In this document: one piece after another, positions 28,511 to 40,048 of the stretch
Position numbering within the stretch: the stretch's first letter is position 1
How the letters are laid out: each line of letters begins with the position of its first letter
From: Escherichia coli
GTDB lineage: Bacteria > Pseudomonadota > Gammaproteobacteria > Enterobacterales > Enterobacteriaceae
DNA length: 64,000 nucleotides
Assembly (NCBI RefSeq): GCF_024223415.1
Contig: NZ_CP100500.1
Strand: one strand, 5' to 3'
Notes under the pieces: generated by a model
Told to the model about the DNA's origin: nothing
The model's database searches: none
Seen by the model: the letters and a program-made list of their open reading frames with translations, nothing else
Program-made: the position numbers and the translations under genes

Positions 28511-28557
28511 AACGACTCGGGGTGCCCTTCTGCGTGAAGGCTGAGAAATACCCGTAT
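28511..28557 (+). promoter_or_regulatory. 5' half of the thiM TPP (THI-box) riboswitch aptamer, cut off by the island
   Basis: aacgactcggggtgcccttctgcgtgaaggctgagaaatacccgtat equals the 5' part of the crystallised E. coli thiM aptamer. Similarity ends abruptly at 28557. Confidence 0.88.
28544..28557 (+). repeat. attL core (direct repeat copy 1)
   Basis: agaaatacccgtat is identical to 39954-39967. Confidence 0.8.
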
Positions 28558-28642: not shown

Positions 28643-28718
28643 TTGTTTGTTGTTGTTCGTCGTTGTTCGTAGAGCTTCAACAAAATGTGTGGTCAGTTGT
28701 GTGGTCAGTTTTTTGAGG
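28643..28718 (+). repeat. Left-arm copy of a ~75-bp repeat shared by both island arms (candidate Int arm-type sites)
   Basis: 28653-28712 is 60/60 identical to 39831-39890. It contains tandem GTGTGGTCAGTT x2 and TTGTTCGT x2, and a further GTTGTTCGT copy lies near 28594. Confidence 0.8.
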
Positions 28719-28745: not shown

Positions 28746-29969
28746 GTGGGAAAAGCACTAAACAAACTGAGCGATTCGACGTTAAAAAAATTGGCGTCTG
28801 TCCAAGCAGAAAAAGAGCGTTTTTACTCCGACGGGGGCGGGCTGGAGATTAAACACTCAAAGGGCGGCAAATTAACCTGGTATTTCCGGTACCGAACGGG
28901 AGGCCGTGAGGTTGCCGCAGAGCGGTTAAAGCTGGGGGCTTACCCTGAATTGTCGCTGAAAGCTGCAAGGGAAAAACGCGCACAGTGCCGGGCATGGCTG
29001 GCTGAGGGTAAAAACCCCCGTTATGAGTTGTGCGCCACAGTACAGGAAGCGCTAAAACCCGTTACGGTGAAGGAGGCGATTAACTACTGGCTGGATGAAT
29101 ATGCGAAGGATAACCGCAAAGACTACATAAAGCTGGTGCAACGTATGGATAAGCACATCATTTGCCATATAGGGGCAATTCCCCTTGATAAGTGTGATAC
29201 AAGGCAGTGGATCGCATGTTTTGACCGTGTACGAAAAAAAGCACCAGTAGCAGCAGGGCACGTCATGCAAACCTGCAAACAGGCGCTAAAGTTCTGCCGC
29301 AGGAGACGCTACGCGTTCAGTAATGCCCTGGACGATTTGATCGTCAGCGATGTGGGTAAGAGAGCAGAAATTCGCGAGAGGGTGCACAGCAACAGCGAAT
29401 TAAAGGAAATTTTACGCGCTATTGATGGTGATGTGTTCGCGCCTTACTACAGCGCGTTAATGCGCTTGCTGATTGTGTTCGGGTGCAGAACGGCAGAGGT
29501 CAGACTTTCAGAGATCAAAGAATGGGATCTGAAAGAAATGTTGTGGACAGTGCCAAAAGAGCATAGCAAAACGAAGGTAACGATATTCAGGCCAATCCCC
29601 GATGGCATTTTGCCGTTCATTCAGAAGCTGGTGGAGCAGAACCGGCATACAGGGTTATTACTCGGAGAACTGAAAAAAGATACCACGGTAGCGCAATATG
29701 GGCGAAATGCGCATAAGCGGCTTAACCAGGAACACTGGACGCTGCATGACTTTCGCCACACGTTTACAACGATGCTGAACGATTTAGGTGTCGATCCGCA
29801 TATCGTGGAGCACATCACAGCGCATCAGATGCCCGGTCAGCAAAAAACCTATAACCATTCACGCTATTTACAGGCGAAGCGAGACGCTCTGAATCTGTGG
29901 GTTGAGCGCCTCGATGTGCTGGCTGGAAATCATGAAAATATTGTCATATTAAGGGCTGAAAATGAATAA
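28746..29969 (+). CDS. int: Tyrosine recombinase, P4-type integrase
   Basis: GTG start with a GAGGA RBS 7 nt upstream. The N-terminus resembles an arm-binding domain (GGGLEIKHSKGGKLTWYFRYR). The C-terminus has HDFRHTF...HQ...Y catalytic motifs. Confidence 0.9.
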   Translation: MGKALNKLSDSTLKKLASVQAEKERFYSDGGGLEIKHSKGGKLTWYFRYRTGGREVAAERLKLGAYPELSLKAAREKRAQCRAWLAEGKNPRYELCATVQEALKPVTVKEAINYWLDEYAKDNRKDYIKLVQRMDKHIICHIGAIPLDKCDTRQWIACFDRVRKKAPVAAGHVMQTCKQALKFCRRRRYAFSNALDDLIVSDVGKRAEIRERVHSNSELKEILRAIDGDVFAPYYSALMRLLIVFGCRTAEVRLSEIKEWDLKEMLWTVPKEHSKTKVTIFRPIPDGILPFIQKLVEQNRHTGLLLGELKKDTTVAQYGRNAHKRLNQEHWTLHDFRHTFTTMLNDLGVDPHIVEHITAHQMPGQQKTYNHSRYLQAKRDALNLWVERLDVLAGNHENIVILRAENE

Positions 29970-30747
29970 TCTGGGCCGTGTATATCATACGCTGCCAATG
30001 GCAGCTAAAAAAATGGGATGTACTGTAGAGGATATTCTACATTTTGGTGCAACTAACCGACTTGAAATATGTGCGTATATTGATGATATTGAACAGAGAA
30101 AAGATTATTGCACTTTTAATGTGTTTTTTGATAATGAAGATAGCGAGAATAGTTTTTCTAAAACTATAAATAAATATAATTCCATATTTACTGACATGTA
30201 TGAAATATCATTGTTTAATTATAATGATGAGTTTTGTGTTGATGATGAGCGTATGGTTATTGAAGGTTTGTATGCTAATCATATGAAAGGCTTTTTTGCA
30301 ATACCATCTGAATTTCTTGTCGAAGTTGAATTGTCAAGTGCCTGTGAAATCATAAATCTATCGCCTCGTTATTTATATACACCGAAAGGTTATGGTGATT
30401 ATATTCGGTTGGATAGTATAGAAGGTCTTTCTATTCCAGAAAACAGGCTCGTGATATTCGATAGTGAGATATCGGGTTTTAATTATCAAAAGAAACCTAA
30501 ATATGCCGGAGGTGAAAGAGAATCACCTAAAACCAGAGCTAAAAAAGCCGAGATAATACCTGCTCTCATAAAACTGATCCCTGAGATGCAAGATGTGGAT
30601 TTGGAGGATACACCCGTATCCAAAATTGCAGAAATGATAGAGGTTATTGCTGCACAAAGAGGGGTTGAGTTACCTAGCACTCACAGGCAGACATGGCAGA
30701 AATATTTAGGGCGTGATGCTGGTGACGTTCCAAAACGTCAAAAGTGA
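29962..30747 (+). CDS. Hypothetical 261-aa protein, strongly AT-rich cargo-like gene, with possible N- and C-terminal HTH-like segments
   Basis: The ATG overlaps the int stop (ATGAATAA). I recognise no family. Composition is visibly more AT-rich than its neighbours. Confidence 0.6.
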   Translation: MNNLGRVYHTLPMAAKKMGCTVEDILHFGATNRLEICAYIDDIEQRKDYCTFNVFFDNEDSENSFSKTINKYNSIFTDMYEISLFNYNDEFCVDDERMVIEGLYANHMKGFFAIPSEFLVEVELSSACEIINLSPRYLYTPKGYGDYIRLDSIEGLSIPENRLVIFDSEISGFNYQKKPKYAGGERESPKTRAKKAEIIPALIKLIPEMQDVDLEDTPVSKIAEMIEVIAAQRGVELPSTHRQTWQKYLGRDAGDVPKRQK

Positions 30748-30837: not shown

Positions 30838-31062
30838 ATGAATCAAAATACACAATTTCAATCACTATCAGATCGCGTAATCCGTGAGGATGAATGCCGT
30901 AAGTTAACAGGAGTGTGCCGCACTACACGCTACGAACTGGAGAAAAAAGGGAGCTTTCCGTCTCGCCGTAATCTTGGTGGGCGTTCTGTAGGTTGGCTGC
31001 TGTCCGAGGTTATGGAATGGGTTAAAAGCCGGGATCGCATTAATTCAGGCAAGGCAGCGTAA
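30838..31062 (+). CDS. alpA: AlpA-family (prophage CP4-57 regulatory / excisionase-like) DNA-binding protein
   Basis: 74 aa with the motif RVIREDECRKLTGVCRTTRYELEKKGSFPSRRNLGGRSVGWLLSEVMEWV, typical of the AlpA/Vis family. Confidence 0.85.
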   Translation: MNQNTQFQSLSDRVIREDECRKLTGVCRTTRYELEKKGSFPSRRNLGGRSVGWLLSEVMEWVKSRDRINSGKAA

Positions 31063-32528: not shown

Positions 32529-32828
32529 ATGAAAAATAAAAATTCTGGCGTTAATGCCAGCGGCCCCGCTCGGCCTGAATTTATGAACGGCGATATTTAC
32601 CGCGACCAGTACGGCGGCACGGTAACGATTAAAGGCGTGGAGGAACGGCGCATCACTTACCGCCGTGAAGGCTACGAATATGATTGCGTGATGCCTGTTT
32701 ATCAGTTCCGGCGTGATTTTTCTCTGGTACAGGCAGCGCCCCGCAGTAAACCAACCAGCAGGGAGAAAGCACGCGCCAATATTCAGGAAATAAAAAAGAT
32801 GCTTAACGTATTCAGGGGTAAAAAATGA
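32529..32828 (+). CDS. Hypothetical 99-aa protein (DUF4222-like, common in enterobacterial prophage-like elements)
   Basis: The motif GDIYRDQYGGTVTIKGVEERRITYR supports the family assignment, which is from memory only. Confidence 0.5.
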   Translation: MKNKNSGVNASGPARPEFMNGDIYRDQYGGTVTIKGVEERRITYRREGYEYDCVMPVYQFRRDFSLVQAAPRSKPTSREKARANIQEIKKMLNVFRGKK

Positions 32829-34573
32829 AACTGGCACCGAACGTAAAAAAACAGCCGCGTGGAATAAAACACAAAGACACAGAGGTGATTATCTTTGCGG
32901 GTAGTGATGCCTGGGCGCACGCGAAACAGTGGCAGGAACAGGACGGCCCCGCATCCGGCGATGATGTGCCGCCTGTGTGGCTCGGGCCAAATCAGCTTGC
33001 TGAACTGGATGCACTGAAAATTGTACCGGAGGGAAAAAAACGCGTAAGGCTGTACAGGGCCGGAGAACTGGATTTGGTGGAGACCAAAAAGATTGGTCAG
33101 AAGCTGGCGGCGGCAGATATTCAGGATGCGAATTTTTACTCTGAAGGAATGCACGGCCAGAAGGTGCAGAACTGGCGGCGCTATCTGAGTGCTGAGCGTG
33201 AAAATATTGCCGCAGGGCTTACCATGCCGGAACAGAAAAAAGCACAACTTTCACAGATGGCAGACAGTGAACGGGCACAGCTTCTTTCTTCCCGCTTTGA
33301 TGGTGTCTGCGTCCATGCAGAAAGTGAAATCGTTCACGTATGGCGCGGCGGGGTATGGTGTCCGGTCAGCACAATGGAACTTAGCCGCGAAATGGTGGCG
33401 ATCTATTCAGAGCACAGGGCCACTTTCAGCAAGCGCGTAATCAATAACGCCGTGGAAGCGTTAAAAGTTATTGCCGAACCAATGGGCGAGCCGTCCGGCG
33501 ATTTGCTGCCGTTCGCCAATGGTGCGCTTGACCTGAAAACGGGGGAATTTTCCCCGCACACGCCGGAGAACTGGATCACCACGCACAACGGCATTGAGTA
33601 CACGCCACCAGCACCAGGGGAGAATATCTGCGACAACGCGCCAAACTTTCATAAATGGCTTGAGCACGCAGCCGGAAAAGACCCGCGCAAGATGATGCGT
33701 ATATGTGCCGCGCTGTACATGATTATGGCGAACCGGTACGACTGGCAGATGTTTATTGAGGCCACCGGAGACGGCGGGAGCGGCAAAAGTACATTCACAC
33801 ACATAGCCAGCCTTCTGGCAGGGAAACAGAACACGGTAAGCGCTGAGATGACATCGCTTGATGATGCTGGTGGGCGTGCGCAGGTTGTCGGGAGTCGGCT
33901 TATTGTCCTGGCAGACCAGCCGAAATATACAGGCGAAGGAACGGGCATCAAGAAAATCACGGGCGGAGACCCCGTGGAAATAAACCCGAAATATGAGAAG
34001 CGTTTTACGGCGGTAATCAGGGCGGTGGTGCTGGCTACCAACAATAACCCGATGATATTCACCGAACGGGCCGGAGGTGTGTCACGTCGTCGCGTAATTT
34101 TCCGTTTCGACAATATCGTCAGTGAGGCTGAAAAAGACAGGGAGCTACCGGAAAAGATTGCGGCTGAAATCCCTGTCATTATCCGCCGCTTGCTGGCGAA
34201 CTTTGCCGACCCTGAAAAGGCACGGGCTTTACTCATTGAACAGCGAGACGGTGATGAAGCTCTGGCAATAAAGCAACAGACGGATCCGGTTATTGAGTTT
34301 TGCCAGTTTCTGAATTTTCTGGAGGAAGCGCGCGGCCTGATGATGGGCGGCGGCGGTGACTCTTCCAGGTACACGACCAGAAACAGCCTTTACCGCGTCT
34401 ATCTGGCGTTTATGGCGTATGCAGGCAGGAGCAAACCGCTAAACGTAAATGACTTTGGCAAGGCTATGAAGCCAGCGGCGAAAGTTTACGGACATGAATA
34501 TATAACGCGCAGGATTAAAGGGTTTACGCAAACCAACGTGACAACAACAGACGACTGCGACGCGTTTTTATAA
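32825..34573 (+). CDS. Replication initiator/helicase, phage-plasmid primase P4-family C-terminal type (SF3 helicase); primase activity of the N-terminus is uncertain
   Basis: NGALDLKTGEF motif, Walker A GDGGSGKST and Walker B LIVLAD. ATGA overlap with the upstream gene. Iterons lie immediately downstream. Confidence 0.85.
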   Translation: MKLAPNVKKQPRGIKHKDTEVIIFAGSDAWAHAKQWQEQDGPASGDDVPPVWLGPNQLAELDALKIVPEGKKRVRLYRAGELDLVETKKIGQKLAAADIQDANFYSEGMHGQKVQNWRRYLSAERENIAAGLTMPEQKKAQLSQMADSERAQLLSSRFDGVCVHAESEIVHVWRGGVWCPVSTMELSREMVAIYSEHRATFSKRVINNAVEALKVIAEPMGEPSGDLLPFANGALDLKTGEFSPHTPENWITTHNGIEYTPPAPGENICDNAPNFHKWLEHAAGKDPRKMMRICAALYMIMANRYDWQMFIEATGDGGSGKSTFTHIASLLAGKQNTVSAEMTSLDDAGGRAQVVGSRLIVLADQPKYTGEGTGIKKITGGDPVEINPKYEKRFTAVIRAVVLATNNNPMIFTERAGGVSRRRVIFRFDNIVSEAEKDRELPEKIAAEIPVIIRRLLANFADPEKARALLIEQRDGDEALAIKQQTDPVIEFCQFLNFLEEARGLMMGGGGDSSRYTTRNSLYRVYLAFMAYAGRSKPLNVNDFGKAMKPAAKVYGHEYITRRIKGFTQTNVTTTDDCDAFL

Positions 34574-34586
34574 TTTTTTGTAATTG

Positions 34587-34814
34587 CTGTCTACCCTGTC
34601 TACCTGAGTAAAGAAAAATACATTTAATTCAGTGCATTAAGTTAGGTAGATAGCCTTTTTTTACTGTCTACCCACTATCTACCCTCTCTACCTGATTTTA
34701 CCAGAATCAGACAGGGAGGTAGACACGGGGTAGATAGTGGATAAAAGCACTCTACCCCGCTGAAAGCCGCGCCATTACTGGCATGAGGGCCACTAAGGTA
34801 GGTAAGGTAGACAA
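34587..34814. other. Candidate island replication origin: iteron cluster (C)TGTCTACC / GGTAGA(C/T)A
   Basis: Direct copies at 34587, 34596, 34664, 34675, 34684 and 34751. Inverted copies at 34645, 34718, 34729 and 34806. The cluster lies in the 288-bp non-coding gap after the replicase gene. Confidence 0.75.
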
Positions 34815-34861: not shown

Positions 34862-35119
34862 ATGCACACATCAGAAAAATTTAACAATCAGAAGAAATCA
34901 CATAACCGCGCCATTGACCTTACAGAGCACTGGCTGAGGGTGGCGATAAAAATCATCGACCGCAACGCGGGAGAAGGATACGCGAAAGCACATCCCGAAC
35001 TGATAAGCGCATTCATGACCACAGCGGCGGCAAACTTTGCCACGTTGACAGAACGGGAGATTGCCGAAGCGGAACAGGTGACAACCATCAATGTTAAAAC
35101 CGGAGAGCAGACAGCATGA
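34862..35119 (+). CDS. Hypothetical 85-aa protein
   Basis: ORF with a GAGGGGG RBS. Its stop overlaps the ssb start. Confidence 0.5.
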   Translation: MHTSEKFNNQKKSHNRAIDLTEHWLRVAIKIIDRNAGEGYAKAHPELISAFMTTAAANFATLTEREIAEAEQVTTINVKTGEQTA

Positions 35120-35526
35120 CAGCACAGATAGCGGCTTACGGGCGGCTGGTGGACGACCCGCAGACAAAACAGACCAGCAAGGGAACACCGATGACGCTGG
35201 CACGTATGGCGGTATCGCTGCCATGCAGCCAGGCACAGGATGGACAGGCGACGTTATGGCTATCGGTCATCGCATTTGGTAAGCAGGCCGACTTCCTGGC
35301 TAAACATCAAAAAGGCGACGTTGCCAGCGTATCCGGCACGATGCAGGTCAGCCAGTGGACCGGACAGAACGGGGAAACGCGGCAGGGTTATCAGGTTATT
35401 GCAGACAGCGTAATCAGTGCCCGTGCGGCACGTCCTGGCGGGAACAGACGCAAAACCACAGGCACACAGGGTAATCAGCCACCAGCGGGAGGCGATGACC
35501 CTTACGGTGATGATATTCCGTTCTGA
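35116..35526 (+). CDS. ssb: Single-stranded DNA-binding protein
   Basis: OB-fold-like N-terminus, a Gly/Pro/Gln-rich linker and the canonical acidic tip DDIPF at the C-terminus. Confidence 0.85.
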   Translation: MTAQIAAYGRLVDDPQTKQTSKGTPMTLARMAVSLPCSQAQDGQATLWLSVIAFGKQADFLAKHQKGDVASVSGTMQVSQWTGQNGETRQGYQVIADSVISARAARPGGNRRKTTGTQGNQPPAGGDDPYGDDIPF

Positions 35527-35536
35527 GGGGGTGACG

Positions 35537-35809
35537 ATGGTACATGACCGGATAGCGGAGGAACTGGAGGCGAAAGGATTTTACCGGAGGGCGGCCGCGC
35601 GATGGGGTGAAGTTATGAGGCTGGTGAGCACTGACAAGGAGCGCGAACAGGTGGCAATGCGACGGCTGGAATGTTCACAGAAGGCACAGAGGCCACCGGA
35701 GCCGCCGGATGATTTAGGCGCTCTGAAAAGGTCAGTTAATCGCACTGAAAAACAAATGGGGATAGCTGGTATTGGCAAAGCAATATGGCGCAACTACCCG
35801 CAGAAGTGA
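35537..35809 (+). CDS. PerC-family-like transcriptional regulator (90 aa)
   Basis: MVHDRIAEELEAKGFYRRAAARWGEVM resembles the PerC/Pch N-terminal signature (from memory). The start was chosen at the ATG with a GGGGGTGA RBS, not the longer ORF-track form. Confidence 0.55.
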   Translation: MVHDRIAEELEAKGFYRRAAARWGEVMRLVSTDKEREQVAMRRLECSQKAQRPPEPPDDLGALKRSVNRTEKQMGIAGIGKAIWRNYPQK

Positions 35810-36050: not shown

Positions 36051-36257
36051 ATGGCAGAAGAGAAAAAAGGCGGGGTGACGGTCTACATAAGCCCCGACAT
36101 CGTGGAGGCGCTCAAGGAACGCCACCAGCAGAATGTAAAAGCAGGCATTGCGGCAGGACTTGATCCGCTGGCGATGGTTGAGCCGTCAACAGGCTGGCAG
36201 GTGCGTACCTATTTACGTGCGGCGCTGGGTATCAATCAGGTTCACGGAGGTGAATAA
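36051..36257 (+). CDS. Hypothetical 68-aa protein, first gene of the capsid module
   Basis: AGAGGA RBS. Its stop overlaps the capsid gene start (TAATG). Confidence 0.55.
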   Translation: MAEEKKGGVTVYISPDIVEALKERHQQNVKAGIAAGLDPLAMVEPSTGWQVRTYLRAALGINQVHGGE

Positions 36258-37312
36258 TGACAGGCAAAGCAACGGCACTTACAACTAACCAGCTTTTCGC
36301 GTACCTGAATCGCGGGGATATTTCGGAATTAAAATTCAGTCCGCTGTTTACCACGCTGTTTTTCCCGAACGTGGCGACCTTCAACACCCAAAACATCATG
36401 CTGGACACCCTGGACATTGAAGAGGTTACGATGTCAGCGTTCTGTTCGCCTATGGTGGGTAGTCAGGTCCAGCGCGATAAAGGGTACGAAACCAGCACAA
36501 TCAAACCTGGCTACATGAAGCCAAAGCACGAAATCGATCCAACAAAGACCATCATGCGCATGGCTGGAGAAGATCCGGCACAGCTTAACGACCCAACCTA
36601 TCGCCGTATGCGCCTGATTACTGGCAACATGCGCCGCCAGGTAAACGCCATTAAAGCGCGTGTTGAATGGCTGGCGGTGAATGCGGTAACGACCGGAAAA
36701 AACATCATTGAGGGCGAAGGCATAGAACGCTATGAAATCGACTGGAAAATACCGGAAAACTGCATCATACAGCAGGCCAGTGGTAAAAAATGGTCCCAGC
36801 AGGATAAAGACATGCACGACCCAATCTATGACATCGAGCTTTATGCTGATCAGGCAGGTTGCCCCGCCAACGTCATGATTATGGGCGGTGAGGTATGGCG
36901 CACATTACGCAGCTTTAAAAAATTCCGTGAACTGTACGATCTTTCCCGTGGATCAGAATCCGCCGCCGAGCTGGCCTGTAAAAACCTGGGCGAAGTGGTG
37001 AGCTTTAAAGGCTATCTTGGTGATCTGGCCCTTATCGTCTATTCCGGCAAATACACTGACAGCGACGGCACCGAAAAATATTTCCTTGAGCCTGATTTGC
37101 TGGTCCTGGGTAACACCAATAATAAAGGGCTGGTGGCATATGGTGCGATTATGGATCAGGAAGCGGTAAGAACGGGCGCAACGCAAAACATGTACTACCC
37201 GAAAAACTGGATTGAGGACGGCGATCCGGCGATTGAGTACGTGCAGACGCACAGCGCACCGCAGCCGGTACCGGCAGATATTCGCAAATTTGTTACCGTC
37301 AAAATTGCTTAA
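36257..37312 (+). CDS. Major capsid protein, lambda gpE family
   Basis: Collinear similarity to lambda gpE as recalled: PGYMKPKHEIDP vs PGYVKPKHEVNP, DPTYRRMRL vs DPAYRRRRI, and YPKNWIEDGDPAIEYVQTHSAP vs YPKNWVTTGDPAREFTMIQSAP. Length is 351 aa against 341 aa for gpE. Confidence 0.88.
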   Translation: MTGKATALTTNQLFAYLNRGDISELKFSPLFTTLFFPNVATFNTQNIMLDTLDIEEVTMSAFCSPMVGSQVQRDKGYETSTIKPGYMKPKHEIDPTKTIMRMAGEDPAQLNDPTYRRMRLITGNMRRQVNAIKARVEWLAVNAVTTGKNIIEGEGIERYEIDWKIPENCIIQQASGKKWSQQDKDMHDPIYDIELYADQAGCPANVMIMGGEVWRTLRSFKKFRELYDLSRGSESAAELACKNLGEVVSFKGYLGDLALIVYSGKYTDSDGTEKYFLEPDLLVLGNTNNKGLVAYGAIMDQEAVRTGATQNMYYPKNWIEDGDPAIEYVQTHSAPQPVPADIRKFVTVKIA

Positions 37313-37323
37313 CGGGGGATTCT

Positions 37324-37659
37324 ATGGACGCTCCATATATTGAGTTATTTGCAGGCAGCCAGCAGGTATCCACGACGCTGGTACATTTTGCCGCTGATGC
37401 TGGCGTTATTCAGGAATTTACCCCGCTGATGCTGGCAGACAATGGCGAGTTTAAGGCGTGGGATGGTCAGGAATCTGGCAAAGCTGTTTATCTGACTTCG
37501 CACCCCGTGGACACGTCAAAGCAGAAATCAGCACAGTGTTACAAAACGGGGATATTCAATATTGCCGCCGTTAACTGGCCTGACAGCGTCGACACCGATG
37601 CGAAAAAATGCGCCGCCTTTGCGGGTTCCGGCGTATCCGTTCAGCCGCTGGCCCGATAA
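37324..37659 (+). CDS. Head decoration protein, lambda gpD-like
   Basis: 111 aa. FTPLMLADNGEFKAWDG vs lambda MTPLMLDTSSRKLVAWDG, and YKTGIFNIAAVNWP...KKCAAFAGSGVSV vs YKSGTFRYEDVLWP...KKRTAFAGTAISI. Confidence 0.8.
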   Translation: MDAPYIELFAGSQQVSTTLVHFAADAGVIQEFTPLMLADNGEFKAWDGQESGKAVYLTSHPVDTSKQKSAQCYKTGIFNIAAVNWPDSVDTDAKKCAAFAGSGVSVQPLAR

Positions 37660-37671
37660 GCAGGGGGAACG

Positions 37672-38085
37672 ATGGCAACGAATGAAAGTATCATGACGCT
37701 ACCGCTGGCGAGTAAATTTAAAGCCGAAGCGCGGGCAATGGCTGACAGAGGTTTATCAACCTACGAGGCCATACACCGACTAAACAAACTGGAAGAACAG
37801 GACAAGCCGCGCGCTGATGCGATTATGGCGCTTCATGAATCTGACGACTACCAGCCGCTGTTACGTGCAATGGCTAACGTGCCTTGTATCGATGTTGGTA
37901 CGGCTAAAAGCATCCTTAGCATGACCATAGAGCAGGAACGCCCGAAGGTTGCACCAGAGCTTACTTCAGCCTTTGAAAACTTTATGGACATGCACAGCCC
38001 GAAAGCCGTATCAGCTGGCATGGCATACGATGGCAGAACCCCGTGCGATGACGGCGACATCGACCGCATACTGAAAACCATCTGA
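37672..38085 (+). CDS. Hypothetical 137-aa protein in the capsid module (function unknown; a scaffold or size-determination role is only a guess)
   Basis: ORF with a GGGGGA RBS, last gene before the terminator and cos site. Confidence 0.55.
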   Translation: MATNESIMTLPLASKFKAEARAMADRGLSTYEAIHRLNKLEEQDKPRADAIMALHESDDYQPLLRAMANVPCIDVGTAKSILSMTIEQERPKVAPELTSAFENFMDMHSPKAVSAGMAYDGRTPCDDGDIDRILKTI

Positions 38086-38090
38086 GACAA

Positions 38091-38114
38091 GGCCGGAGAA
38101 ATCCGGCTTTTTTT
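38091..38114 (+). terminator. Rho-independent terminator after the capsid module
   Basis: ggccgga-gaaa-tccggc followed by TTTTTTT. Confidence 0.75.
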
Positions 38115-38116
38115 GC

Positions 38117-38190
38117 GGGTCCTTTCCGGCATGTGGACCCGTTACGGGGCGTCGACCTCGCACGTTTTCGCTATTTATGACGTTTTTCCG
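38117..38190 (+). other. cos site 1 (plus orientation): lambda-like cosQ-cosN and the beginning of cosB
   Basis: gggtcctttccgg...cccgttacGGGCGTCGACCTcgcacgttttcgctatttatga matches recalled lambda gggtcctttccgg...ggttacgGGGCGGCGACCTcgcgggttttcgctatttatga. The 12-nt overhang equivalent is at 38147-38158 (11/12 identical to lambda). Confidence 0.8.
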
Positions 38191-38247
38191 TGAAGGTGAC
38201 ACCACCACCACTTGATTAATATTTAACCATGTAGTTAAGGTAACATT

Positions 38248-38682
38248 ATGATTGATAAAGCTTGTTTTGTAAGTCAGCAGGAAATAGCTGAACATTTCAA
38301 TGTTAACAGAACCACTATTCGCGCATGGACCAAACAGGGGATGCCGTATCTTAATGCGGATCGCGGAAAGTCTGGCGGTTATCACATCGGGCATACATTG
38401 TTTTGGTATTCAGGTAAAAGCCATCTTCAGACCATCGGATATCACGTAGAAACCAGTGCGCTGGAAAAAATTATGTTTGCCAGGCTGCTTTCATCTGAGC
38501 GTGACGAGTACTCCAGTGAAGAAACAGAACATCGATTTGATGAAGGTTTGCAGATTTACGGCTATTCACCGGAAGATGTGAGCAAGGCACGAAATAAAAT
38601 GGCTGGCTTTCTGGCTGGGTGGCGTCATGCCGTAAGCGTTCGCCGTGCCAGCATGGAGCAATCAGCCGATACAGAACAGTAA
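38248..38682 (+). CDS. Small terminase subunit, lambda Nu1-like (winged HTH N-terminus)
   Basis: VSQQEIAEHFNVNRTTIRAWTKQGMPYLNADRGKSGGYHIGHTLFWY parallels Nu1 KKQLADIFGASIRTIQNWQEQGMPVLRGGGKGNEVLYDSAAVIKWY. It lies just downstream of cos site 1, as Nu1 does in lambda. Confidence 0.75.
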   Translation: MIDKACFVSQQEIAEHFNVNRTTIRAWTKQGMPYLNADRGKSGGYHIGHTLFWYSGKSHLQTIGYHVETSALEKIMFARLLSSERDEYSSEETEHRFDEGLQIYGYSPEDVSKARNKMAGFLAGWRHAVSVRRASMEQSADTEQ

Positions 38683-38850: not shown

Positions 38851-38930
38851 TCCCGAAAAATTTTCATAAATAGTGAAAACGCGCGGGTTCGACGCCCCGT
38901 AACGGGCCATAATTCCAGAAGGACCCGACG
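38851..38930 (-). other. cos site 2 (minus orientation): second lambda-like cosQ-cosN, convergent with cos site 1
   Basis: The minus strand reads gggtccttctgg...cccgttacGGGCGTCGAACCcgcgcgttttcactatttatgaaaattttt. The overhang equivalent is at 38886-38897 (9/12 to lambda). An 18-nt core (38889-38906) is identical to 38138-38155. Confidence 0.75.
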
Positions 38931-38960: not shown

Positions 38961-39242
38961 ATGACAGAAGCCGAACTACTGGGATTAATCCGCCGCGTTA
39001 CCGGAATCAGCCAGCAGCATGACGAACAGGCCACGCAGCCGGACAGCGTGACCGCCGAAAATTATGTGCGTGTTGTTGCGGAGGTGATGCGCCGTGACGG
39101 TATTGAGCTTAACGGCGTGGATATGCGCGACATACGGATCCGCGTTCTGGAAATGCTGGCATACCGTCGCCGCGTGCAGACGTACAGGGAAAAAGCAAAA
39201 ATAACGTACCACTGGAAGAAGCCGGAACGACTGCGTACGTAA
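38961..39242 (+). CDS. Hypothetical 93-aa protein
   Basis: ORF with a GGGGG RBS. It ends in the palindrome CGTACGTA-A-TACGTACG (39233-39249). Confidence 0.45.
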   Translation: MTEAELLGLIRRVTGISQQHDEQATQPDSVTAENYVRVVAEVMRRDGIELNGVDMRDIRIRVLEMLAYRRRVQTYREKAKITYHWKKPERLRT

Positions 39243-39261: not shown

Positions 39262-39506
39262 AACGCAAAATTGCGCTGGCTACATCCCTCACATCTGAGG
39301 ACTGATAACAAGCTGCCTGAAAGACAGTCACAAACTACGAAATTTTCGCAGTTTAATTAATGGTCAGCTTAATCGCTAACCCGCTGATATTTTCGGAAAC
39401 ATCAATTTGAGGAAGTCGGCGCGGTAACTCGCTGAACTTAAAGCAAAGCGCAAAATTGCGCTGATTACTGGTTGGAATTGTTCCAGAGTGCAAATTTGCA
39501 CTCTGG
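39262..39506. repeat. Set of related inverted repeats (GCGCAA-AA-TTGCGC type) plus a 24-bp perfect palindrome
   Basis: aacgcaaaattgcgct at 39262-39277, agcgcaaaattgcgct at 39447-39462, and ccagagtgcaaatttgcactctgg at 39483-39506. Confidence 0.7.
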
Positions 39507-39667
39507 CCTAACCCGTTGATTATTTCGAAAACCTGCAATGCAGGAAATCGGGGAAGTAAGCCTAAGCTATTGATTGTTTCGAAAACCACCATTGGGGGAT
39601 GTCGGGAAAGTAAGACTAACCCATTGATTCTTCCACAATCCTCAATGTGAGGAGGCCGGACATCGTG
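39376..39667. repeat. Four degenerate ~54-bp repeat units (three in exact tandem phase) in the right arm of the island
   Basis: Units start at 39376, 39508, 39562 and 39616. Consensus is CTAACCCnTTGATTnTTTCGAAAAC plus a short hairpin plus GTCGG..AGTAAG. Confidence 0.75.
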
Positions 39668-39820: not shown

Positions 39821-39894
39821 TTGTTTGTTATTGTTCGTCGTTGTTCGTAGAGCTTCAACAAAATGTGTGGTCAGTTGTGTGGTCAGTTTTGAGG
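39821..39894 (+). repeat. Right-arm copy of the ~75-bp repeat shared by both island arms
   Basis: 39831-39890 is identical to 28653-28712. Confidence 0.8.
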
Positions 39895-39953
39895 TTTTTA
39901 ATTCTTATGTGCTGAAAAACTTATTAATTATCAACTGATAACAAAAATTAGTA

Positions 39954-39967
39954 AGAAATACCCGTAT
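39954..39967 (+). repeat. attR core (direct repeat copy 2)
   Basis: agaaatacccgtat is identical to 28544-28557. Confidence 0.8.
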
Positions 39968-40048
39968 CACCTGATCTGGATAATGCCAGCGTAGGGAAGT
40001 CACGGACCACCAGGTCATTGCTTCTTCACGTTATGGCAGGAGCAAACT
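39954..40048 (+). promoter_or_regulatory. 3' half of the thiM TPP riboswitch aptamer plus its expression platform
   Basis: agaaatacccgtatcacctgatctggataatgccagcgtagggaagtcacgg...ggcaggagcaaact continues the thiM aptamer exactly where 28557 stops and runs to the thiM ATG. Confidence 0.88.

Follow-up and report, generated by a model that had tools for sequence, protein, structure and literature searches.

Five open reading frames (ORFs) lie on the plus strand between positions 36051 and 38682 of a 64,000-nucleotide (nt) window from Escherichia coli (contig NZ_CP100500.1 of assembly GCF_024223415.1). They are part of an integrated element of 11,410 bp, referred to here as the island, which is compared in the following with the phage-inducible chromosomal islands (PICIs) of Gram-negative bacteria and above all with their prototype EcCICFT073 (Fillol-Salom 2018 ISME J, PMC6092414; 2019 Mol Cell, PMC6739421), whose gene names are given as equivalents. 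A previous sequence-only reading of the locus had described a satellite with its own lambda-type capsid and decoration proteins, two small proteins without assigned function and a Nu1-like small terminase (TerS), and had regarded this gene set as undescribed. The first four genes are termed the cassette, and the features needed for the argument are as follows.

28544-28557, plus strand: core of the left attachment site (attL), AGAAATACCCGTAT, exact copy, at the junction with the empty K-12 site
36051-36257, plus strand: orf68, 68 amino acids (aa), first gene of the cassette, no function assigned; phrog_3255 (unknown function), E = 8.7e-36
36257-37312, plus strand: major capsid protein (MCP) of the gpE family, 351 aa, c1499 equivalent; Pfam Phage_cap_E (PF03864), E = 1e-50
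37324-37659, plus strand: head decoration protein (Dec) of the gpD/SHP family, 111 aa, c1500 equivalent; Pfam HDPD, E = 1.7e-17
37672-38085, plus strand: predicted Nu3-like scaffold homologue, 137 aa, c1501 equivalent; phrog_1999, E = 6e-62, full length
38124-38193, plus strand: cos1, with cosN GGGCGTCGACCT at 38147-38158; aligns with cos1 of EcCICFT073 and with the lambda cos end
38248-38682, plus strand: predicted redirecting-phage-packaging protein (Rpp) of the RppA type, 144 aa, c1503 equivalent; PDB 6HLK (RppC), E = 1.6e-33
38851-38920, minus strand: cos2, inverted copy of the cos1 arm; 70-nt inverted repeat, 79% complementary, aligned with cos2 of CFT073
39954-39967, plus strand: core of the right attachment site (attR), AGAAATACCCGTAT, exact copy, at the junction with the empty K-12 site

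Shell, decoration and scaffold homologues encoded by the cassette

The five ORFs lie at the coordinates given earlier, and the 351-aa and 111-aa proteins are homologues of gpE and gpD, as had been proposed. The Phage_cap_E match spans residues 26-349 of the MCP, which also matches phrog_29 (E = 3e-109) and displays 43% identity with lambda gpE in an alignment of 343 residues. Matches to solved structures were obtained with PDB 3BQW, a 'putative capsid protein of prophage' of 351 residues (E = 2.7e-229), and with the lambda MCP (7VI9, E = 8.7e-81). For Dec the best PDB matches are 1TD0 (E = 4.6e-13) and 1TD3 (about 5e-13), ahead of lambda gpD (1C5E, E = 3.9e-9), with which Dec shares 36% identity over 76 aa.

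The 137-aa protein is a Nu3-type scaffold homologue and so leaves the pair of small proteins to which no function had been given. Besides its full-length match to phrog_1999, it matches phrog_53, a 'head maturation protease' profile, at the C-terminal end of this profile (E = 1e-7). Lambda Nu3 also falls into phrog_1999 with its C-terminal 84 residues (E = 2.7e-26), as does the fused protease-scaffold (C/Nu3) protein of phage PhiR12_2_star with its C-terminal 137 residues (E = 1.4e-61). With BLASTP the 137-aa protein displayed 36% identity to residues 416-493 of the 501-aa PhiR12 C/Nu3 protein (E = 3e-10), and alignment of its family profile with residues 47-117 of lambda Nu3 using hhalign gave a probability of 88% (E = 3e-6). 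Direct BLASTP against lambda Nu3 gave no match and the relationship is therefore called distant, but it is consistent across these comparisons; phmmer against the PDB gave no match either. Only 9 relatives were returned by an exhaustive HMMER search with the 137-aa protein, and its AlphaFold2 model is all-helical with low confidence (pLDDT 64). As judged from these similarities, homologues of shell, decoration and scaffold proteins are all encoded by the island. The scaffold had been thought to come necessarily from a helper phage and, as the 137-aa gene is Nu3-like, it need not.

The second small protein, the product of orf68, remains a protein to which no function is assigned. It has no match in Pfam, NCBIfam or PADLOC, and tblastn gave no phage match. 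Its AlphaFold2 model (pLDDT 75) shows a beta-hairpin and two helices, and comparison of this model with PDB folds yielded nothing better than E = 1.8. Homology to lambda gpW, which also has 68 aa, or to FI was considered and rejected, as hhalign probabilities were only 0.2% and 1%, respectively. The order of the cassette is orf68-E-D-Nu3, in which E-D-Nu3 is the reverse of the order in lambda and other phages, in agreement with the reversed order of E and D noted earlier.

An Rpp protein flanked by two cos sites

The label of a Nu1-like TerS for the 144-aa ORF had to be replaced, as the protein is predicted to be an Rpp and not a small terminase. Its match to RppC covers residues 2-125 (6HLK; 6HN7 is the complex with TerS) and it is 95% identical to RppA from CFT073. 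Resemblance to Nu1 is limited to residues 8-56, with 31% identity over 49 aa, and the Pfam Phage_Nu1 score of 16.9 bits falls under the cut-off of 30 bits. The architecture of a full-length Nu1, an N-terminal winged helix-turn-helix (wHTH) followed by a C-terminal part for oligomerisation and gpA binding, is not present, the remainder of the protein aligning with RppC. RppA binds the TerS of the helper and retargets it to the cosB of island cos1, and mutagenesis has shown that R21 and T22 are required for DNA contact and cos recognition, L51 for heterodimerisation with TerS, and F121 for homodimerisation (PMC6739421). All four residues are kept in the translation of the island Rpp.

The rpp gene lies between the arms of cos1 and cos2, repeats of about 70-78 nt that are separated by 657 nt. 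The cosN of cos1, at 38147, has one mismatch to lambda cosN, which bears out the lambda-like cos sites recognised earlier, and the cosB side of cos1, the part recognised by RppA-TerS, is almost identical to that of cos1 in CFT073. At cos2 the cosN (about 38886, minus strand) reads GGGCGTCGAACC, while lambda and CFT073 cosN read GGGCGGCGACCT; a G-to-T change at position 6 (G6T) is found in both island copies. In six contigs of lambdoid phages from IMG/VR (L009, L010, L012, L013, L015, and L016) the cos1 cosN variant with its flanks precedes Nu1- and A-like genes, and therefore compatible helpers exist. In strain WP4-S17-ESBL-08 (L006:3859-4671) the segment between the cos sites is inverted relative to the capsid genes and its rppA product is identical to that of CFT073, which suggests recombination between the cos arms.

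Boundaries of the island and kinship with EcCICFT073

Two exact copies of AGAAATACCCGTAT occur in the window, at 28544 and 39954, with a chance expectation of 0. Alignment with the uninterrupted K-12 locus places the insertion in the rcnR-thiM intergenic region, and because the K-12 chromosome is continuous exactly at both copies, the unit length is the distance between their starts, 11,410 bp, in accordance with the att cores and the length given earlier. A 70-nt direct repeat, which as att would give a unit of 11,178 bp, was rejected, as the alignment with the empty K-12 site places this repeat inside the island. Its copies (28643-28712 and 39821-39890, 99% identical, containing GTGTGGTCAGTT twice) lie about 60-90 nt, edge to edge, inward of each att core, and integrase arm-type sites may lie within them.

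The island displays the features by which PICIs are recognised. Its size falls within 10-15 kb, it is bounded by att direct repeats and carries an integrase gene at one end. An alpA gene is present and every assigned gene is on the plus strand; a predicted primase gene is followed immediately downstream by a putative origin of replication (ori). Capsid morphogenesis is represented by the MCP of the Phage_cap_E type, and packaging redirection, which calls for TerS or Rpp together with an own cos or pac site, by the RppA-type protein, cos1 and cos2. A DUF4222 gene is also among these hallmarks.

The 3.4-kb late region is 93.9% identical at the nucleotide level to positions 1385311-1388638 of E. 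coli CFT073, with the same gene order, and the right part of the island aligns with EcCICFT073 for 6.7 kb without a break (91.4% identity). The shared late module consists of the 68-aa gene, c1499, c1500, c1501, cos1, rppA (c1503), cos2, and a 93-aa gene, and the primase, SSB, PerC, and DUF4222 genes as well as the size of about 11 kb are also shared. Amino acid identities are 90% for the primase, 98.5% for the single-stranded DNA-binding protein (SSB), 95% for MCP, Dec, and Rpp, 93% for the 137-aa protein, and 84% for the 93-aa protein. The supplement of the 2018 study lists c1499 with 351 aa, c1500 with 111 aa, c1501 with 137 aa, and c1503 as rppA (PMC6092414). The islands differ in att site, which is the thiM leader here and lies between roxA and phoQ for EcCICFT073, in a divergent AlpA region, in an extra 261-aa ORF, and in the G6T change of cosN. 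The integrases are only 67% identical; this low identity and the divergence of the AlpA region are expected, since the att sites differ.

From these comparisons it is almost certain that the element is a PICI of the EcCICFT073 type whose packaging is driven by Rpp. For EcCICFT073, helper-dependent induction, packaging, and transfer were shown with lambda, phi80, and CFT073 prophage 4, at up to about 1e6 transductants per ml (PMC6092414). By analogy with it, the earlier description of an att-bounded, helper-dependent satellite with gpE- and gpD-like genes of its own would stand. The gene set is real but already known: the module belongs to the described EcCICFT073 family, and the island is a fresh copy, at another att site, of a satellite family that has been experimentally dissected. 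The 2018 study already names c1499 as capsid gene and c1500 as decoration gene and describes their deletion (PMC6092414), and a capsid homologue in EcCICFT073 was noted in Dokland's 2019 review. The supposition that classical Gram-negative PICIs lack a capsid gene does not hold either, as a major capsid gene is found in 21 of the 29 reference islands, where it is the commonest late gene (PMC10111431). The architecture is thus already catalogued, and SatelliteFinder counts 'Capsid morphogenesis' among its five core components for PICIs (PMC10085698).

Absence of other head and tail genes and comparison with other satellites

The island was searched by tblastn with lambda Nu1, A, W, B, C, Nu3, D, E, FI, and FII and with the W to V proteins of a second lambdoid phage (PhiR12). 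The only queries to give matches were E, D, and the C/Nu3 protein, the latter with its last 80 residues, and Pfam and PHROG scans of all island ORFs revealed no portal, protease, large terminase (TerL), tail, or lysis family, confirming the earlier statement that portal, protease, TerL and tail genes are missing. Compared with lambda, the island therefore has homologues of E, D, the C-terminal region of Nu3, and the N-terminal wHTH of Nu1 and a lambda-like cosN; unlike lambda it is devoid of A, W, B, the C protease, FI, and FII, its Rpp lacks the C-terminal part of Nu1, and its cosB differs. Among the other ORFs of at least 150 aa in the window, which were listed but not scanned, no phage-sized cluster was seen that might represent a helper prophage.

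With the capsid-forming PICI (cf-PICI) EcCIEDL933 (Alqurainy et al.) the island shares an int-alpA-rep backbone and an own capsid protein, but cf-PICIs carry portal, protease, head-tail connector, HNH, TerS, and TerL genes and make their own small capsids, whereas in the island no match to A, W, B, the protease part of C, or FII and no corresponding Pfam or PHROG family was found. Among its ORFs there is no match to the Psu, Sid, or Delta families of P4-like satellites in Pfam or PHROGs, and the likeness to P4 is limited to the P4-family C-terminal domain of the primase. SaPIbov5, with its protein Ccm, and PmCI172 are, like the island, cos-packaged PICIs encoding homologues of the HK97-fold capsid protein of the helper. 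Small capsids were seen with SaPIbov5 and PmCI172, whereas EcCICFT073 yielded phage-sized DNA only and its capsid gene is dispensable.

Conservation of the cassette and exchange of its neighbours

Seven diverged copies of the cassette (dS 0.13-0.39) were compared. All five ORFs of 36051-38682 are intact in every one of the seven copies, and dN/dS amounts to 0.11 for MCP, 0.11 for Dec, and 0.27 for the Nu3-like gene; for orf68 it is 0.32 as ratio of means and 0.11-0.25 in pairwise comparison with the copy in the window. The cassette was detected with at least 80% coverage in 588 of 5,426 complete E. coli genomes (~11%, about one in nine). The cassette is a morphogenesis module that is conserved and under selection, but it does not amount to a stand-alone head. 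That the locus might be a decaying prophage remnant whose head genes are relics would accord with the presence of only three head-gene homologues in the island. However, no ORF is disrupted, dN/dS stays at 0.1-0.3 among diverged copies, both att junctions are precise, all PICI hallmarks are present, and a near-identical element is mobilised at high frequency, so that this explanation, to which a negligible probability is given, is effectively refuted by dN/dS, att junctions, and published transfer data.

The cassette occurs in islands in which the next gene encodes either Rpp or a true TerS of 180 aa. The TerS-type E. coli PICIs (for example in O157:H7 LSU61 and strain 2013C-3252) carry orf68-MCP-Dec-137aa at 92-95% identity, followed by the 93-aa gene, and have the 180-aa small terminase in the slot of Rpp (L004:11036-11578, L005:4036-4578, L007:4036-4578). 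A RepA-type helicase takes the place of the primase in three of the four fetched islands without Rpp, and modules appear to be swapped around a constant cassette. In the 4.6-kb contig L017 (IMG/VR 3300008491_000088), cassette and cos run directly into Nu1- and gpA-like genes of the same type as in phage contig L013; this contig is explained either by chimeric assembly of the metagenome across shared cos sequence or by an 'elongated' PICI with captured terminase genes.

According to another proposal the cassette consists of spare capsid genes, backing up interrupted head genes of the helper as in helper-embedded PICIs (HE-PICIs), or of recently captured late genes of a helper without a role in the satellite. 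The HE-PICI 11capE integrates in the E gene of its helper and yet has an E homologue of its own, late-gene capture has been proposed for the clade (PMC10111431), and L017 has the cassette beside Nu1- and A-like genes. Nevertheless, the island occupies a chromosomal site and not a prophage, its MCP is only 43-47% identical to helper-type E proteins so that any capture would be old, and the order E-D-Nu3 is reversed relative to that in phages. We consider this proposal very unlikely.

Packaging of the island and role of the cassette

The following life cycle, proposed for the present island on the strength of 91-95% identity, has been demonstrated experimentally with EcCICFT073. A lambdoid helper would activate AlpA, and the island would excise and then replicate from its own primase and ori. 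RppA, the N-terminus of which would mimic the DNA-binding domain of Nu1, would form heterodimers with the helper TerS, and the specificity of the terminase would be switched from the phage cosB to the cosB of island cos1. Phage packaging would be blocked, and concatemers of the island would be cut and packaged from cos1 into helper-built heads, which would be joined to helper tails.

Lambda packages DNA within limits of about 75-105% of its genome length. Four island units correspond to 45.6 kb or 94% of lambda and three units to 34.2 kb or 71%; as four units lie within these limits and three below them, the tetramer would be the fitting unit, although the literature speaks loosely of three copies per particle. 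When EcCICFT073 was mobilised with lambda, only DNA of phage size was packaged and a monomer band was not seen (PMC6092414). Of the two options raised earlier, packaging of multimers is the one reported for this near-identical island.

As for the cassette, the role that we tentatively favour, at somewhat under even chances, is that its products co-assemble with, or substitute for, helper shell, decoration, and scaffold proteins on a portal-protease core of the helper. When lambda, phi80, or CFT073 prophage 4 is the helper, such a role would be dispensable. The decoration protein of lambda binds only expanded shells. Conservation of the cognate decoration protein suggests that the capsid protein of the island really enters capsids. 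Taken as a whole, with the packaging mechanism and this role of the cassette included, the region 36051-38682 is very probably best explained as the morphogenesis and packaging end of an EcCICFT073-type PICI.

Several observations weigh against this explanation. Deletion of c1499 or c1500 left interference with lambda and transfer unchanged and an island carrying c1499::cat transfers well (PMC6092414), and genes located after ori, other than rppA, failed to block lambda when over-expressed singly (PMC6739421). Compared with lambda, the cosN of the island has one changed base in cos1 and three in cos2. Finally, a divergent PICI (L011) keeps MCP and Dec and has neither the Nu3-like gene nor orf68, and therefore the four-gene unit is not universal.

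The marked EcCICFT073 islands used throughout were c1501::tetA and c1499::cat, and the c1499 and c1500 deletions were built in the c1501::tetA background (PMC6092414). Both markers fall inside the E-D-Nu3-like cassette of EcCICFT073 (L001:9358-11186), tetA within the Nu3-like gene and cat in place of the capsid gene. The lack of a phenotype and the phage-sized DNA may therefore have been obtained with cassette-defective islands, and if the tetA insertion inactivates c1501, neither the size nor the composition of capsids has ever been assayed with an intact cassette. No mention of this caveat, nor of the c1501 family as Nu3-type homologues, was found in the searchable literature, and our searches revealed no later work assigning a function to c1499, c1500, or c1501. 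It is possible, if rather unlikely, that orf68-E-D-Nu3 is a working unit which, with natural helpers, builds the shell of the island's own particles around a portal-protease core of the helper, this shell being chimeric or wholly island-encoded and possibly of different size. Such a shell could have been missed because every EcCICFT073 derivative studied has its marker inside the cassette.

The sequence-only reading had gone further and proposed a new kind of satellite that must build its own gpE/gpD-like shell, possibly a small one for a single 11.4-kb unit, around the portal of a helper. This proposal gains from the Nu3-like scaffold, with which shell, decoration, and scaffold would all be island-encoded, from the strong purifying selection on MCP and its cognate Dec, and from PmCI172, a Gram-negative PICI bearing a capsid gene that makes small capsids. 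As all tested EcCICFT073 derivatives were marked in the cassette, an assay with an intact cassette was perhaps never made. Against it stand an architecture that is not new and the phage-sized DNA, without a monomer band, packaged from EcCICFT073 by lambda. The capsid and decoration genes are dispensable for transfer, and a shell that must be self-built is contradicted by the knockouts for lambda, phi80, and CFT073 prophage 4, although with islands marked inside the cassette. Because of the placement of the markers a modest probability is kept for the idea of an own shell, which in this form we judge distinctly unlikely; the observation itself would still not be new.

A further proposal sees the cassette as a device for interference or defence, poisoning capsid assembly of competing lambdoid phages that do not serve as helpers. 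Interference with phages is common in PICIs, the capsid homologue Ccm of SaPIbov5 interferes, and selection on the cassette together with its prevalence shows that it has some function. Interference with lambda, however, was not relieved by deletion of c1499 or c1500, over-expression of single genes left lambda and phi80 unblocked, and a poison would have no obvious need for a conserved cognate decoration protein. This explanation also appears improbable, and co-assembly with helper proteins on a helper core is preferred.

As a discovery the locus matters little, as it holds a module of the best-studied Gram-negative PICI with an MCP that matches a solved structure (3BQW), and satellite-finding software already uses this module as a marker. 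What is gained is a cleaner annotation, in which the supposed TerS is predicted to be an Rpp and the c1501 family is predicted to comprise Nu3-type scaffold homologues. The question is also sharpened why a satellite-borne set of shell, decoration, and scaffold genes is kept under purifying selection in about one in nine complete E. coli genomes despite knockouts without phenotype and, related to it, how informative these knockouts are, given the positions of the markers.

Other genes and features of the island

The remaining assigned genes and the putative ori are located as follows.

28746-29969, plus strand: tyrosine integrase, 407 aa; Pfam Arm-DNA-bind_3 and Phage_integrase
30838-31062, plus strand: AlpA regulator, 74 aa; Pfam Phage_AlpA, E = 4.4e-16
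32825-34573, plus strand: predicted primase/replicase, 582 aa; Pfam D5_N, DUF5906, and Pox_D5, NCBIfam P4-family primase C-terminal domain
34587-34695, plus strand: iteron-like 21-nt repeats, putative ori; direct-repeat family D5, copies at 34587 and 34675, 90% alike
35116-35809, plus strand: SSB (136 aa; Pfam SSB, E = 7e-17) and PerC-family activator (90 aa; Pfam PerC, E = 1e-38)
38961-39242, plus strand: orf93, conserved, no function assigned; phrog_1561, E = 1.6e-56

A PICI ori has been described at the equivalent spot downstream of pri (PMC6092414). The end of int is overlapped by an ORF of 261 aa (29962-30747) in a stretch of 38% GC, to which EcCICFT073 has no counterpart and for which no match was obtained with Pfam, PHROG, NCBIfam, or PADLOC; an accessory or defence gene is a candidate identity for it. 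At the other end of the island, orf93 was found in all seven copies compared, with dN/dS of 0.19. Between orf93 and attR, a stretch of about 700 nt has no plus-strand ORF of at least 60 aa and is occupied at 39374-39613 by a 54-nt direct repeat in three copies (70-78% alike), two of which are in tandem and for which no Rfam family was matched. A minus-strand ORF of 79 aa in the same interval gave no PHROG match.

The att core falls within the thiamine pyrophosphate (TPP) riboswitch aptamer of the thiM leader. At attR the 5' half of the aptamer (P2/P3) is replaced by island DNA, the original 5' half staying at attL, 11.4 kb away, and the Rfam TPP model (RF00059) scores only 36.4 bits there (39880-40014), its gathering score being 54.3. 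In carriers of the island the control of thiMD by thiamine may be altered.

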